DNA of 32,000 nt from the NCBI RefSeq assembly GCF_001652585.1, contig NZ_LWLG01000001.1:90001-122000 (forward strand), written 5' to 3'. This DNA comes from Thermosulfurimonas dismutans. Lineage in GTDB: Bacteria > Desulfobacterota > Thermodesulfobacteria > Thermodesulfobacteriales > Thermodesulfobacteriaceae. Below, one piece after another: positions 5,401 through 29,394 of the stretch (position 1 is the first letter of the stretch; each line of letters opens with the position of its first letter). The notes beneath the pieces are model-generated. The model saw only the letters and a program-made list of their open reading frames with translations, was not told the DNA's origin and did not search any database. A program made the position numbers and the translations under genes.

Positions 5401-6048
5401 ATGAAAGCCCTCAGGGAAGCGGCCAGAGATCTGGCCTACCTCCTGGATCGCGGTTATCCCGAAAGAGCTAGTCTCAAATTGATCGGGGATCGCTTCGGTC
5501 TCACCGCTGAAGAGAGGGAACTTCTCATCCGGGCCACCGTTCCCCGGCAAAAGGCCCTTCTCCGCCGGCAAAAGAAGGTGAGGGCCCGAGAGCTTAGAGG
5601 AGCCCGGGTAAGCGTTGACGGCTTCAATGTCTTGGCTACCCTAACACACGCCTTAAGAGGTTACCCCCTTGTGCTTGCCAGAGACGGTTTTATAAGAGAT
5701 GCCGTGCGAGCCGGGAAAAATTTGCGTCTTGAACCAGAACTACCCTCGCTCCTTGGACTCCTTGAAAAATTCTTTCGCCGGTTTCGTCCTGCTCATGTCG
5801 GTTTCTATTTCGATGCCCCCGTTTCTGGAAGTGGAAAGCTTGCGGCCAGGATCCGTATCTGGCTCAAAGAGCTACCCCTCCCGGGTGAGGCTCTAGCATT
5901 GCGCGACGCCGAAAGGCGGGTGCTCTCTGGAGAAATCGTCTGCACCGCGGACGGACCTCTCCTTGAGCGTGCGGATAAGGTCTTTGATCTTGCAGGCTTC
6001 ATTGTTCGGCGTTATCTGAGAAGCCCCCTCTTCAAACTCTTCAGTTAA
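5401..6048 (+). CDS. Hypothetical protein, DUF434-like N-terminus plus a PIN/NYN-like C-terminal domain
   Basis: 215-aa ORF. The N-terminal LREAARDLAYLLDRGYPERASLKLIGDRFGL resembles the DUF434 family as I remember it. The C-terminal half (VSVDGFNVL ... FYFDAPVSGSG ... VCTADGPLL) looks like a small nuclease-like alpha/beta fold. The family assignment is from memory and not searched. Confidence 0.55.
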   Translation: MKALREAARDLAYLLDRGYPERASLKLIGDRFGLTAEERELLIRATVPRQKALLRRQKKVRARELRGARVSVDGFNVLATLTHALRGYPLVLARDGFIRDAVRAGKNLRLEPELPSLLGLLEKFFRRFRPAHVGFYFDAPVSGSGKLAARIRIWLKELPLPGEALALRDAERRVLSGEIVCTADGPLLERADKVFDLAGFIVRRYLRSPLFKLFS

Positions 6049-7336
6049 CAGGCCCGGGACAAAAGGGATCGCGATCCCGAAAGGGATCAAGGCCGGAAGT
6101 GGCGATCACGGCCAGACATCCTCGACAAATAGCGTAGAGCCGACAGTCATAGCAGGCCTCTGGCCCCCGGCGGTATTTCTCGGACCTCTCCGAGTGATAG
6201 ATCTCCAAGAGATCGTTCTCAAAGATATTTCCCAAATAAGAAGAAAATTTCCGACAGGCATGGACCTCGCCATCCGGGAGAAGGGCCACAAAGTTGAAGG
6301 CCGCGCCACAACCAAAGCCGGTACAGCCCCCACAAAGTTCGTCTTTCTTGCGGTAAAGCAGATGGTTAAAAAGATTGTCCTTCAAATGGAGGTGAGGCAG
6401 GTTTGCACTCTCCTCAAGAAATTCCACCATCAAACGAAAAAAAGTGTCCCTTTCAGCCGGAGAAAGTTTTCGGCCCTCCCCGGTAAGGGCCAACCGATTA
6501 AATGTAAAGGTCTCCACTCGACCGGAAAGGCTTCTGGCCAGAGGCAGGACCTGATCGACGTTTCCGGCATGAAGGGTCAACATCACGCTCGCTGAGACCC
6601 CGGAATCCTTAAGCATTTCTAGGAAGGAAAGCGTTCGCCTAAAATGGCCTGGGCCTCGGATAAAGTCGTTGTAAGCTTCAAGGCCCTCAAGGCTTACCTG
6701 ATAGTAGGCCGGGGGTTCAATGGCAAGAATCCTCTCAAACCAGGCCTCCGGTACCGGATTCCCCAAAATGGCCAGGGTAAAATCTCTCTCCGAGGCCTCC
6801 CTATAGAGCTCGAAGAAGTCGGGATGCAGAAAGGGATTGCCTCCGGAAAACGAAATCTGGCCCTGGACCCGCATCTCTTCACAGAAATCATAGAAACGAT
6901 CCAGCACTCTCAAGGCCTCTTTAAGATTTAAGGGCCTGCGGTCGGTGCGGTCGTAACAATGACGGCAGGCAAGATCGCAGCGCTGGGTAAGGTGCCACTG
7001 AAGGGTAAAAATCTCCGACCGACGAAAATCCTCTCCCGGGAACCAGGCCTCTTTATAAGGACTTCCGGACCGAACAACCCGAGTAGGTTCTTTGAGGAGA
7101 TACCCCTTCTTAACGCCTAACCTGAGGACCCCCTTTAGGACGCTTAATGAGACCGCCTCTTTGTGGGCCACTTCTCTGAGATCCCTATCTTCAAGGACAA
7201 GTTTCAGGGCTAGAAGATCATAGGGAGATGGTTTTTCCCGGTGCTTTTGGTCGGTCTTGAGATCTTTCCAGAAGAGCTCAAAGTCCCCTCCCTGCCTCTT
7301 TAGTTCAAGGGTAGGGTTTAAATAATAGCCCTTCAC
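6041..7336 (-). CDS. Radical SAM/SPASM-domain peptide maturase with an N-terminal extension of about 110 aa (SbtM-like candidate)
   Basis: 431-aa ORF with a GTG start. The canonical CxxxCxxC is present at C120/C124/C127 (QRCDLACRHCY). The C-terminal SPASM-type Cys clusters are CGGCTGFGCGAAF..HACRKF and CYDCRLYAICRGC...FCPG. It lies 46 nt downstream of the small UGA-containing ORF. Confidence 0.85.
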   Translation of the reverse strand: MKGYYLNPTLELKRQGGDFELFWKDLKTDQKHREKPSPYDLLALKLVLEDRDLREVAHKEAVSLSVLKGVLRLGVKKGYLLKEPTRVVRSGSPYKEAWFPGEDFRRSEIFTLQWHLTQRCDLACRHCYDRTDRRPLNLKEALRVLDRFYDFCEEMRVQGQISFSGGNPFLHPDFFELYREASERDFTLAILGNPVPEAWFERILAIEPPAYYQVSLEGLEAYNDFIRGPGHFRRTLSFLEMLKDSGVSASVMLTLHAGNVDQVLPLARSLSGRVETFTFNRLALTGEGRKLSPAERDTFFRLMVEFLEESANLPHLHLKDNLFNHLLYRKKDELCGGCTGFGCGAAFNFVALLPDGEVHACRKFSSYLGNIFENDLLEIYHSERSEKYRRGPEACYDCRLYAICRGCLAVIATSGLDPFRDRDPFCPGPVN

Positions 7337-7353
7337 TTTAAGCTTATTCCCCA

Positions 7354-7369
7354 GGGCCTGACCAGGCCC
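7354..7369 (-). promoter_or_regulatory. Intercistronic hairpin GGGCCU-GGUC-AGGCCC between the small ORF and the radical SAM gene
   Basis: A 6-bp GC stem with a 4-nt loop, read on the minus strand 12 nt after the TGA at 7382..7384 and 18 nt before the GTG at 7336. No U-tract follows. It could be a partial terminator or RNA-stability element, as is common between RiPP precursor and enzyme genes. Confidence 0.35.
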
Positions 7370-7381
7370 TTAATCTTAACC

Positions 7382-7657
7382 TCAGCCACTTTTACCAGAA
7401 GGTTTGACAGGCATATGAGCTTCAGGCTTTTCTTCAGAGGCCTTCTCCGTAGCCTCTGGAGTAGCATTTTCGATGGTATTCTTTGAGGACTTTATGTCCA
7501 TATCCATTTGAGCGGCACCGCCGCCCTTCTTGGAACCTCAACCGCTACAGCCACTCTGAGAAAGGGCTCTGGCTGGAAGGCTCAAACCTCCACTCGCAGC
7601 CAAAAGGGCCGAAAGACTAACTCCCGTCAGCATTCTTTTGATTTTTTCTGTTTTCAT
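7382..7657 (-). CDS. Candidate selenocysteine-containing RiPP precursor peptide (91 aa with U40; 39 aa if the TGA terminates)
   Basis: My translation from the ATG at 7657 is MKTEKIKRMLTGVSLSALLAASGGLSLPARALSQSGCSG, then TGA (7540..7538), then GSKKGGGAAQMDMDIKSSKNTIENATPEATEKASEEKPEAHMPVKPSGKSG, then TGA (7384..7382). A GGAGAGAGGAG Shine-Dalgarno sequence sits immediately upstream. An in-frame stop lies 4 codons upstream of the ATG. The gene lies directly 5' of the radical SAM/SPASM gene on the same strand. The ORF track shows only the antisense ORF 7508..7708. Confidence 0.45.
7510..7526 (-). promoter_or_regulatory. bSECIS-like hairpin (17 nt, GGGCGGC-GGU-GCCGCUC) 11 nt 3' of the in-frame UGA
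   Basis: The minus strand reads UGA ggttccaagaa GGGCGGC GGT GCCGCTC. The stem has 5 GC pairs plus G.U and G-C extensions. The apical loop contains GGU. Both the size (17 nt) and the 11-nt spacing match the minimal E. coli fdhF SECIS geometry. Confidence 0.4.
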
Positions 7658-7691
7658 CTCCTCTCTCCTTCACAAAATTTCATATTTCTTA

Positions 7692-7720
7692 TTTATATCA
7701 TGCTATAAAATAAATAGCAA
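7692..7720 (-). promoter_or_regulatory. Sigma70-like promoter for the small ORF (-35 TTGCTA, 17-nt spacer, extended -10 TGATATAAA)
   Basis: The minus strand reads TTGCTA (7720..7715), tttattttatagcatga, TATAAA (7697..7692). This lies about 35 nt upstream of the ATG at 7657, within a very AT-rich stretch. Consensus match by eye only. Confidence 0.4.
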
Positions 7721-8007
7721 ATTTTTTATTGGAATTCCTTATAAAAATATATAAAAAGAAAATCCGTGGGTTTACTGGTAACAGGAAGAAAGTAAAGTTA
7801 TATCCGAATTGAGCGATTCCGAAGGCCAAATCCAGGCTGAAGATGAAAATTTGATCAGTAAAATCAATGGTTATGCAATATCCTTCGCAAAGGATTGGCT
7901 AGCCTAATGGATTAAGCAAAAATAGGAATAGGGCCTGACCTAGCTCAAGAATGGGGTTGGGGACGAAGCCCAAAAGGATACGTCAACCAAAATCGCTCAG
8001 ATTGGGT

Positions 8008-25374: not shown

Positions 25375-25398
25375 AACATAATTTTAAACTTTACCCTC

Positions 25399-25429
25399 AA
25401 AATAAAAAGAGGGGGCCGAAGCCCCCTCT
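25399..25429 (-). terminator. Rho-independent terminator of groES-groEL
   Basis: The minus strand reads AGAGGGGGC-UUCG-GCCCCCUCU (9-bp stem, UUCG tetraloop), followed by UUUUAUUUU. It lies 27 nt after the groEL stop. Confidence 0.8.
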
Positions 25430-25455
25430 TAGGTTTCCTCTCTCAAAGGGTATCT

Positions 25456-27489: not shown

Positions 27490-29394
27490 TCAACGCCGGA
27501 AAAGGGCCCAAAAGAGCGCCAAGATAAAAAGTAGAAACGAGGCCCCTAAAAAAGAAGAAAAACTAAGTGGCAGATAGGGCAGAAGTTCTGGAGCGGTGAC
27601 CGCCAGAAAGGAAGGCACCGAAAAATAGAGCAGAAAAAGAAGGATCTCTCCCACAACAAACACCTTGAGAAAGGTAGATAGTTGTTTTCGGAAAAGTCTT
27701 TTGGCCTCGAGTCTCTTCTTCTCCTGCTCTAAAGTTTCGATCAAACTGTGAATATTGGCAGCCTCTTTTAGAAGACTGCGGAATTCTTTGATCGGATCCT
27801 TGCCGAGGCGCTGCTCTAAGCGAAGCAAACGGTTACCGACCTCGCGTAATCTCTGATTGAACACGGATTCTCCATACTTATAGGGGTAGCTAGACCAATA
27901 TCTCTTGAGTGCATGATATCGAGAAAAAAATTCCGATATCCGCTCTCGGATCTCCCGAATTTTCCGATAAGTGTATCCCTGAATCTCCAGACTCAATTCC
28001 ATAGCCTCAAGGGCCGCCTTCTCAAGTTCGAAAAAGCAACCTTTATATATTTTCTCCCGAAAATTACTAAGCTGATCCTCAAGAGCAGAGAGTTCTTCTT
28101 CGGAAAGGAGTTGTTTCAGGCGATGAAGGCCATCTTCGGCCTTCCGGAGTGTCGTTAAAGCCTCGGCCTGTTTCTTCTCTATTCGGGAAAGCAATTCCTT
28201 TTCTAGCTCTTTACCAAAAAGCAAAAAGGCCGGCTCAAGGAACGCCAGAGTAAAAATCACCGGATGGCCAAGCAAGGGAGACAAGCGAAAAAGATCACGT
28301 TCGGTCCCTCCGAGATAAAAGGAAACCAAAAGTTTATGATAGGTAGCGGGCACCGCCGAATGGTCCTTCTTTAAGGCTTCGGCATAAAAACGCTCAGCAG
28401 AGACAAAATCTTTCTGCATCTCATAGATACGAGCTTTTAAGAGCAAAATGGAGGTCTGGACCAGCGGTGGGAGGTTTTCGGTCTTCACCTCTTCGAAATA
28501 GTAAAGGGCCCGTTCATAATCTTCCTGTAAGATCGCCAGATGACACAGTCCCAATCCTACCCGATAATCAGAAGGATCACCTGCGGCCAAGAACCTCTTT
28601 TCAGACTCCTTAAGGTTCCCGGTGTGAAGATTTTCCAAGGCTATGAGAAGATGACCTCCTTTGGTGGGAATCTCTTTCCCCAAACTGACCTGAGAAAAAT
28701 GGGACCATTCCGGGACTTTGTAGTAAAGGATGCGCAGGAAGGCCGGCTGTAAGTAAAAGTATCGAGCGTAGAGTCCTTGAAGCTCCTTAGCGAAAAGTTC
28801 GCCTTTCAAAAGCCTTTGGGTGAGACTCTGCCCGAGGTCTTTCAAAGTCTGATAAAGATAGGCCTTTAAGGCCTTCCCGCTAACCATCTCTTTGAGTCCG
28901 GGGCAATCCGCATTACGATGCCAGGGCAGACCACAATAGAAACAAGGTCCCTTCTGCCCAACCCAAAGGAGATCTCTGGTTCTGAATAGGACCTCGGGAT
29001 CAGCGGTTGTAGGCAAAATAACTTCGAGAAGATTTTGCCATGGTTTAATGGTTAACAAAAAGCCAAGTTTTTTAGAAGCCCTCTCTAAGGCTTCCTTCAT
29101 GGAAGGACTTACATAAAGCTTCCCGGGTCTAAGCCAGGAAACATTGGCCTTTTCCGGAAGGAGGTTAAAGGGAAGAGGAGCTTCTCCAAGCTCCCTGCTA
29201 AAAGAGGACCTCAATTCCGAAAAGGTCTTATTCAGGGTGGCCAGATGCTCAGGGGCAAAATGAAAGAAATCACCTTCACGTCTCAGGTAGGCGGAGAGGT
29301 GTTTCAAGACCAGCGCTCGAAAATCGCGTTCTCTGCCGGGGAAGAGATAAGCCGCCAGCCTTTCATGGAAGAAAAAGCGCAATCTCTCATTCAC
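27490..29394 (-). CDS. Hypothetical 634-aa protein: N-terminal domain with a CCHC zinc knuckle, TPR-like region, long coiled coil, C-terminal double transmembrane hairpin
   Basis: A long ORF with coding-like composition. It has an exact C-x2-C-x4-H-x4-C motif (CFYCGLPWHRNADC, residues 151-164). TPR-like helices are present (YERALYYFEEV..., FVSAERFYAEALKKD). Heptad-rich segments span about residues 400-560. The last ~55 residues form two hydrophobic helices. Its start overlaps the lspA stop by 4 nt. No family recognised. Confidence 0.7.
   Translation of the reverse strand: MNERLRFFFHERLAAYLFPGRERDFRALVLKHLSAYLRREGDFFHFAPEHLATLNKTFSELRSSFSRELGEAPLPFNLLPEKANVSWLRPGKLYVSPSMKEALERASKKLGFLLTIKPWQNLLEVILPTTADPEVLFRTRDLLWVGQKGPCFYCGLPWHRNADCPGLKEMVSGKALKAYLYQTLKDLGQSLTQRLLKGELFAKELQGLYARYFYLQPAFLRILYYKVPEWSHFSQVSLGKEIPTKGGHLLIALENLHTGNLKESEKRFLAAGDPSDYRVGLGLCHLAILQEDYERALYYFEEVKTENLPPLVQTSILLLKARIYEMQKDFVSAERFYAEALKKDHSAVPATYHKLLVSFYLGGTERDLFRLSPLLGHPVIFTLAFLEPAFLLFGKELEKELLSRIEKKQAEALTTLRKAEDGLHRLKQLLSEEELSALEDQLSNFREKIYKGCFFELEKAALEAMELSLEIQGYTYRKIREIRERISEFFSRYHALKRYWSSYPYKYGESVFNQRLREVGNRLLRLEQRLGKDPIKEFRSLLKEAANIHSLIETLEQEKKRLEAKRLFRKQLSTFLKVFVVGEILLFLLYFSVPSFLAVTAPELLPYLPLSFSSFLGASFLLFILALFWALFRR

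Follow-up and report, generated by a model that had tools for sequence, protein, structure and literature searches.

A probable selenocysteine insertion element within the sbtA precursor gene of Thermosulfurimonas dismutans

The window considered here is a stretch of 32,000 nucleotides (nt) from Thermosulfurimonas dismutans (contig NZ_LWLG01000001.1, positions 90,001 to 122,000 of the forward strand), and the element under study is a 17-nt hairpin on its minus strand, called hairpin 1 below, which lies shortly downstream of an in-frame UGA. We conclude, with a probability of about 0.9, that this hairpin would act as a bacterial selenocysteine insertion sequence (SECIS) inside sbtA, the gene for the precursor of a thio(seleno)oxazole-containing ribosomally synthesized and post-translationally modified peptide (RiPP). 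We observed directly the sequence and the geometry of the hairpin, the family membership of the gene, and the conservation and covariation of the structure in related loci. The SECIS reading had been put forward in a first-pass annotation made from the letters of the DNA alone; it is now supported by the gene family, a second in-frame UGA, the orthologues, covariation, the contrast with cysteine codons and a covariance model. Recognition of the SbtA family, the second element and the prior description of the whole system go beyond what that annotation contained.

Hairpin 1, the sbtA gene and the adjacent maturase gene

The first-pass annotation had read, on the minus strand, a UGA followed by an 11-nt spacer and the 17-nt sequence GGGCGGC-GGU-GCCGCUC, and we found precisely this arrangement at 7540..7510. 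The pairing that it had described, G-C pairs with a single G.U, holds as well: the stem comprises 7 base pairs (bp), six G-C/C-G and one G.U, forming a perfect helix free of bulges, whose 5' arm GGGCGGC occupies 7526..7520 and whose 3' arm GCCGCUC occupies 7516..7510 on either side of the loop GGU (7519..7517), which counts 3 nt, or reads CGGUG when the closing pair is opened. Folding with RNAfold returned hairpin 1 as the minimum-free-energy (MFE) structure in all the stretches that were folded. Translation of the open reading frame (ORF) places the hairpin over the codons for (K)GGGAA(Q), in agreement with the Gly-Gly-Gly-Ala-Ala run announced beforehand. One detail had to be corrected: the loop, previously located 17-19 nt past the UGA, is preceded by 11 + 7 nt and therefore occupies nt 19-21. 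The general bacterial model of bSECISearch (Zhang and Gladyshev 2005) is said to place a G near the beginning of the apical loop, at a distance of 16-37 nt from the UGA, and hairpin 1 shares these traits, its loop lying within that range.

The UGA that precedes hairpin 1 (UGA 1) is codon 40 of the ORF 7657..7376, a second in-frame UGA (UGA 2) is codon 92, and the frame continues past both, reading MKTEKIKRMLTGVSLSALLAASGGLSLPARALSQSGCSG-UGA-GSKKGGGAAQMDMD...KPSGKSG-UGA-G-UAA. With UGA translated as selenocysteine (Sec, U), the peptide presents the core motif S-G-U-G twice, besides a single S-G-C-S. Its residues 1-28 form a signal-peptide-like leader and score 31.9 bits on the NCBIfam family TIGR04081, entitled SbtA family thio(seleno)oxazole RiPP natural product precursor, which exceeds the curated cutoff of 30.5 by a narrow margin; the SbtA of T. 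marina, a relative described below, reaches 39.4 bits on the same model. A protein search with a Cys-substituted SbtA gave no match, the query being short and of low complexity. GenBank divides the gene into TDIS_0110 (39 residues, ending at UGA 1) and TDIS_0109 (41 residues, from an internal Met to UGA 2), both annotated as hypothetical proteins.

UGA 2 is accompanied by a hairpin of its own (hairpin 2). The intervening spacer, GGUUAAGAUUA, is also 11 nt long and also begins with GGUU, and hairpin 2, built of a 7-bp GC stem and the loop GGUC, ends 16 nt ahead of the sbtM start. Because hairpin 2 is non-coding, complementarity between codons cannot explain it. A scan of the window for further UGA-interrupted genes gave none that was convincing, so that hairpin 2 is the sole comparator for hairpin 1 within the organism.

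The next gene on the same strand, sbtM, starts 39 nt past the sbtA stop codon. The cysteines of the radical S-adenosylmethionine (SAM) motif CxxxCxxC (C120/C124/C127) and those of the SPASM domain are invariant in our SbtM alignment A1. The protein scores 581 bits on TIGR04082 (cutoff 350; NCBIfam title, thio(seleno)oxazole modification radical SAM maturase SbtM), matches the Pfam families Radical_SAM and SPASM, and is 100% identical to the SbtM record of T. dismutans. It aligns to profile positions 107-516 of 516 only, the first ~106 positions of TIGR04082 being without match. Most other family members count 500-550 residues; the SbtM of all close relatives count 427-445 (427-431 for most), and because of this uniformity we regard the short SbtM as a feature of the clade, not as a truncation.

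Conservation and covariation of the hairpins

We compared the locus with those of Thermodesulfatator (L001), T. marina (L082), Caldimicrobium thiodismutans (L083) and five metagenome-derived relatives (L084-L088, from metagenome-assembled genomes and assembled contigs). In all of them sbtA lies upstream of sbtM, the UGAs occur in the same motifs, hairpins follow 11-18 nt after, and Sec is kept at the aligned position. The residues encoded under hairpin 1 vary (GGGAAQ, GGGPAL, GGVSAPV, GGGSAPA, GGGAAKK) while the stem is retained, for instance as GGGUGGC-GGA-GCCGCCC in L001 and as GGGCGGA-GUU-UCCGCUC in L088, where a compensatory change converts the closing C-G into A-U. In the alignment of this clade (A3), 91.4% of the cells pair, as compared with 41-57% when the partners are slid, and 2 pairs show double changes. 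Hairpin 2 also presents compensatory changes among the orthologues (AGGGCCU/AGGCCCU, AAGGCCU/AGGCCUU and GCCCCG/CGGGGC). A lower stem around hairpin 1 is more tentative: it was predicted in one fold (Table 1), L084 is able to pair UCUA/UGGA at this place, and in T. marina the stem is predicted in another register. Finally, at the position of Cys37 of the window, T. marina, L084 and L088 have a UGA and read U-S-G-U, and such interchange of Sec and Cys at aligned positions is typical of genuine selenoproteins. For T. marina, the NCBI annotation already gives SbtA as an 83-residue product across three UGAs.

The wider family was collected by a metagenome scan with the SbtM alignment, which gave 80 loci, and a leader hidden Markov model located SbtA in 63 of 82 sequences. 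A GC-rich hairpin was found 6-20 nt downstream of 140 of the 148 non-redundant UGAs that stand in a Sec context (~70 related loci), and downstream of 14 of the 43 other UGAs, several of which are probably genuine too. The hairpin offsets peak at 11 and 14 nt, the commonest loops are AGGUA, AGGUG, GGU and GUU, and one loop G is invariant. When the same peptide context is considered, a hairpin within 10-17 nt follows 91% of 99 internal Sec sites versus 13.5% of 37 Cys codons. Cys-only precursors exist (e.g., L074), and these are without the hairpin-coding G-A-G-G-T motif. Resampling of synonymous codons over 99 family sites gave a median P of 0.03, with 70% of the sites at P <= 0.05.

Covariation was quantified in an alignment of 123 family elements (A2), from which the window and L001 were excluded. 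RNAalifold predicts for it one 6-bp stem, all 6 pairs of which show compensatory double changes; at one of these pairs, the counts are 75 for U-A, 35 for C-G and 8 for A-U. The covariation amounts to 0.546, versus 0.188 in shuffles (0 of 500 reaching the observed value) and at most 0.148 with slid partners. A covariance model built from A2 (R1), hence also without the window and L001, was searched against the entire window with the filters switched off. The top match was 7507..7540 on the minus strand, with 19.2 bits and an E-value of about 0.008 (E-values being rough here), and the next one reached 7.6 bits. The coordinates of all these features are collected in Table 1.

Table 1. Features of the sbtA-sbtM locus, in coordinates of the window
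Feature	Position	Strand	Description
UGA 1	7538..7540	-	in-frame; read as Sec40; motif S-G-U-G
Spacer 1	7527..7537	-	GGUUCCAAGAA, 11 nt, between UGA 1 and hairpin 1; begins GGUU
Probable SECIS hairpin 1	7510..7526	-	17 nt; MFE structure, covariance-model match, clade alignment
Possible lower stem (tentative)	7503..7534	-	UCCA 7534..7531 with UGGA 7506..7503, around hairpin 1; 66-nt fold
UGA 2	7382..7384	-	in-frame; read as Sec92; S-G-U-G; one codon ahead of the UAA stop
Probable SECIS hairpin 2	7353..7370	-	AGGGCCU-GGUC-AGGCCCU, in the sbtA-sbtM spacer; starts 11 nt past UGA 2
sbtA	7376..7657	-	93-codon precursor peptide gene; ATG at 7657; Cys37, Sec40, Sec92; stop UAA 7378..7376
Cys37 codon	7547..7549	-	UGU; UGA (Sec) at the aligned position in T. 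marina, L084, L088
Shine-Dalgarno-like AAGGAG	7665..7670	-	7 nt ahead of the sbtA ATG; read from the sequence
sbtM	6041..7336	-	radical SAM/SPASM thio(seleno)oxazole maturase, 431 residues; GTG start; TIGR04082

Tests against chance, rival explanations and proposed decoding

Several results weigh against a SECIS. The first-pass annotation had proposed to compare the fold energy with that of shuffled controls, and had held that a hairpin no more stable than these would speak against its reading. Taken formally, this is what we obtained: with dinucleotide shuffles, z was -0.87 for 7505-7545 (32 of 200 shuffles folding as well) and -1.36 for 7510-7540 (21 of 200), and hairpin 2 gave a z of about 0. 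The Gly/Ala run itself favours hairpins, some hairpin being formed in ~45% of synonymous redraws. In its whole-window run, R1 did not find hairpin 2, whose loop and closing pairs differ from the consensus, and Rfam 15 gave no match at gathering score and only chance-level ones at E < 10. The percentage of paired positions in A2 is partly a matter of construction, since the sites were chosen for having a hairpin; the double changes in A2 and the figure of 140 of 148, which was counted before selection, are free of this effect. Lastly, no tRNA-Sec (tRNA scan) and no sel gene were found within the window.

The shuffle test has low power because hairpin 1 is only 17 nt long and G+C-rich, and position-specific tests were therefore used. 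Over both strands of the whole window, 8 of 914 TGA triplets have a hairpin of equal strength that begins 10-17 nt further downstream, and only 3 of the 914 have a strong hairpin at exactly 11 nt, two of them being the UGAs of the 93-codon sbtA ORF. None of the ordinary TGA stops of the window genes (n = 11) is among the 25 strongest TGA hairpins, down to a score of 15. When the peptide was fixed and the codons redrawn from window usage, 4.3% of the redraws matched the strength of hairpin 1 (P = 0.043), a result that is modest alone, since codons for Gly (GGN) can pair with those for Ala (GCN). We consider the shuffle result outweighed by the remaining evidence for a SECIS.

If UGA 7540 were a true stop separating two unrelated small ORFs of 39 and 41 residues, with the hairpin as a by-product of GGN/GCN codon complementarity, one would understand the two separate hypothetical proteins of GenBank, the fold energy no better than that of shuffles and the frequency with which redraws of the same peptide yield some hairpin. 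This explanation is nonetheless highly improbable: the frame has no other stop between UGA 1 and UGA 2, which stands in the same S-G-U-G motif, the orthologues retain both UGAs and both hairpins despite changed residues under the hairpin, hairpin 2 is beyond the reach of codon complementarity, and Cys-context codons carry a hairpin far more rarely than Sec sites. The covariation moreover supports a constrained structure, and the product that NCBI calls in T. marina runs over three UGAs. It is also very unlikely that the hairpins are mainly regulators at the mRNA level (a terminator or attenuator, a stability element or a translational coupler of sbtM) and not SelB sites. A regulatory side effect of hairpin 2 is conceivable, as 16 nt separate it from the sbtM GTG and a GGGGA run borders on it, but hairpin 1 sits in the middle of a coding sequence, and a set distance from the UGA (11, 14 or 17 nt) combined with GGU/GUU loops at ~140 sites suits a decoding element rather than a terminator. 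Neither hairpin has a following U-tract (AAAUGG follows hairpin 1), and a terminator scan of 7250-7950 found no terminator-like site, which rules out an intrinsic terminator.

Readthrough of the UGAs without Sec, either by near-cognate Trp/Cys suppression or through a local recoding signal independent of SelB, has nothing direct in its favour; SbtM takes both Cys and Sec substrates in vitro (PMC9204691), so that a Cys-containing product would still mature. We give it a next to negligible probability, since Sec/Cys interchange at aligned positions with a hairpin only after UGA is the classical signature of a selenoprotein, and since the family consensus GGUGC-AGGUR-GCACC is near the minimal SECIS of Escherichia coli fdhF, GGUUGCAGGUCUGCACC (PMC10945757). 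UGA also serves as a normal stop elsewhere in the window, where it is the commonest one (11 of 25 genes); readthrough in sbtA must therefore be local, and a genome-wide reassignment of UGA was ruled out on the same count.

According to the reading that we prefer, a SECIS within sbtA, hairpin 1 would stand at the mRNA entrance, 11 nt downstream, when UGA 7540 is in the ribosomal A site, and its G/U-containing apical loop would recruit SelB-GTP-Sec-tRNA(Sec), so that UGA 1 would be decoded as Sec40 and not as a stop. Hairpin 2, which lies past the stop codon in the sbtA-sbtM spacer, would act likewise for UGA 7384 (Sec92), and the product would be a 93-residue peptide with a signal-like leader, Cys37, Sec40 and Sec92, both Sec residues being in S-G-U-G. 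The adjacent radical SAM enzyme SbtM would then oxidise Gly-Sec, and probably Gly-Cys37, to seleno/thio-oxazoles. For T. dismutans we infer the binding of SelB, the actual insertion of Sec and the chemistry, the activity of SbtM being carried over by analogy from studies of the Geobacter-type enzyme. Sec decoding by T. dismutans is suggested, indirectly, by the annotation in one paper, which counts the T. dismutans MccSep gene TDIS_RS01570 as one of the Sec-containing representatives that have a SECIS-like element (2026; PMC13510729).

In a number of related loci, two in-frame UGAs lie 9-18 nt apart and are followed by one hairpin (L082:1321-1370, L084, L088, L018, L036, L070, L078 and L055). 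An example reads Q-S-G-U-S-G-U-G, with hairpin offsets of about 20 and 11 nt, and two Sec codons seem to share one SECIS at such loci. Sister taxa have one hairpin after two UGAs 9 nt apart (offsets 20 and 11), and T. dismutans has Cys in place of the upstream UGA of the pair. The geometry of SbtA-type SECIS elements could be much looser than the E. coli paradigm and be accompanied by a second role, a reading that we regard as unlikely. Should this be true, occupancy of hairpin 2 by SelB or the ribosome could couple the translation of sbtM to the decoding of Sec in SbtA, an idea that stems from the location of hairpin 2, which adjoins the ribosome-binding region of sbtM in the 39-nt spacer between the two genes. 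A GGGGA Shine-Dalgarno-like run (in the stretch 7340-7352, minus strand) directly abuts hairpin 2, and sbtA and sbtM share a reading frame, with UAA-GAU-UAA between them; to judge from the sequence, translational coupling of the two genes is possible.

Relation to known systems and further observations

The minimal SECIS of E. coli fdhF is a 17-nt upper stem-loop which starts 11 nt past the UGA and has a bulged U in its stem; the rule of the 11-nt spacing was reportedly established by Liu et al. in 1998. Hairpin 1 shares with it the length of 17 nt, the 11-nt spacer, the apical GGU, the overlap with coding sequence and, as far as the predicted fold goes, possibly a lower stem set off by an internal loop. 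It differs by the absence of the bulged U, its 7-bp helix being perfect, and by its loop of 3 nt or CGGUG, and SelB is lineage-specific.

The SbtA/SbtM 'selenobiotic' family was reportedly described by Haft and Basu in 2011, and SbtM is said to have been characterised by the Bandarian laboratory. According to published accounts, a SECIS directly follows the UGA of SbtA genes, which probably code for two or more Sec residues, and the characterised SbtM homologue takes four hydrogens off a Gly-Cys/Sec unit to produce a thio- or seleno-oxazole (PMC9204691; PMC11002830). In 2022 the pair was described as apparently limited to Geobacter and 'Desulfbacteria' (PMC9204691). The locus of the window shares with this system the signal-like leader, the Gly-Sec-Gly motifs, at least two UGAs each followed by a probable SECIS, and the adjoining radical SAM/SPASM maturase. 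It differs in belonging to the Thermodesulfobacteria clade, not to Geobacter or Desulfobacteria, in an SbtM of 431 residues without the first ~106 profile positions, in a hairpin GGGCGGC-GGU-GCCGCUC (coding for GGGAA) where the common form is GGUGC-AGGUR-GCACC (coding for GAG(G/S)T), and in a Cys where sister taxa have the first Sec of the U-S-G-U pair.

The SbtA/SbtM system is thus already described: the finding holds but adds no new kind of system, and what is new is local, namely the Thermodesulfobacteria variant, the short SbtM, the divergent hairpin, the Cys that replaces the first Sec and the split GenBank annotation. Knowledge of how a SECIS or SbtM works is unchanged by it. On the preferred reading, the 'hypothetical proteins' TDIS_0110 and TDIS_0109 would be one selenopeptide precursor with two Sec residues, which would correct the public record, and the range of the SbtA/SbtM selenium-RiPPs would extend to thermophilic sulfur-disproportionating Thermodesulfobacteria. 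The ~140 natural SECIS variants with strong covariation, for which there is no matching Rfam family, could in addition be used to train a bacterial SECIS model.

Other features of the precursors deserve mention. The leader of the window SbtA (7574-7657, minus strand) resembles an export signal, with a basic N-region, a hydrophobic core and A-R-A before L-S-Q, and more than 20 delta-type SbtA (leaders of L003-L081) present a lipobox-like L-x-G-C near residue 29; export of the SbtA product, or its anchoring to a lipid, is possible. Between the two Sec motifs lies a linker of low complexity (7385-7510, minus strand). In the relatives L082, L084 and L088 it contains tandem N-A-T-E repeats (NATENATENATE), and the version of the window is degenerate (ENATPEATEKASEEKPEA). 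Many delta-type SbtA genes end in ...S-G-UGA-(S/G)-UGA (L003, L008, L009, L012, L017, L022, L026, L027, L051 and L059), with a hairpin 12-14 nt past the first UGA and only 6-8 nt past the second. The second UGA is probably a real stop, in which case UGA would mean Sec and stop two codons apart.

Loci of the Caldimicrobium type present a second small ORF ~200 nt upstream of sbtA (L083:1020-1196, L085:1027-1203, L086:1023-1199 and L087:758-943), which is absent from the window and gave no NCBIfam match. Its leader is different and non-signal-like, its core reads ...FPKG(T/I)SSU(G/S)SSUGDKP(K/R)R(S/N)GVS..., and its two UGAs, 12 nt apart, are followed by one hairpin, GGAGCGGA-GUU-UCCGCUCC. From its sequence, this ORF may encode a Sec precursor of SbtM that belongs to a second class, so far undescribed.

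The neighbours of the locus in the window are housekeeping genes (leuCD, gltX, yebC, ruvCAB, panB, lpxC, era, rnc, groEL and parAB). A convergent gene for a DUF434 + DUF5616 protein (5401-6048, plus strand) shares 8 nt with the 3' end of sbtM; this neighbour is also present in T. marina and L084, and its position is taken by an Endonuclease_5 family protein in L083, L085 and L087 and by a GTPase-like gene in L086. For an ORF of 634 residues (27490-29394, minus strand), neither Pfam nor NCBIfam gave a match at E < 1e-5. Finally, a strong 9-bp hairpin, AGAGGGGGC-UUCG-GCCCCCUCU, which lies just 3' of groEL (25397-25445, minus strand) and entered the census of TGA hairpins by accident, is probably the terminator of that gene.

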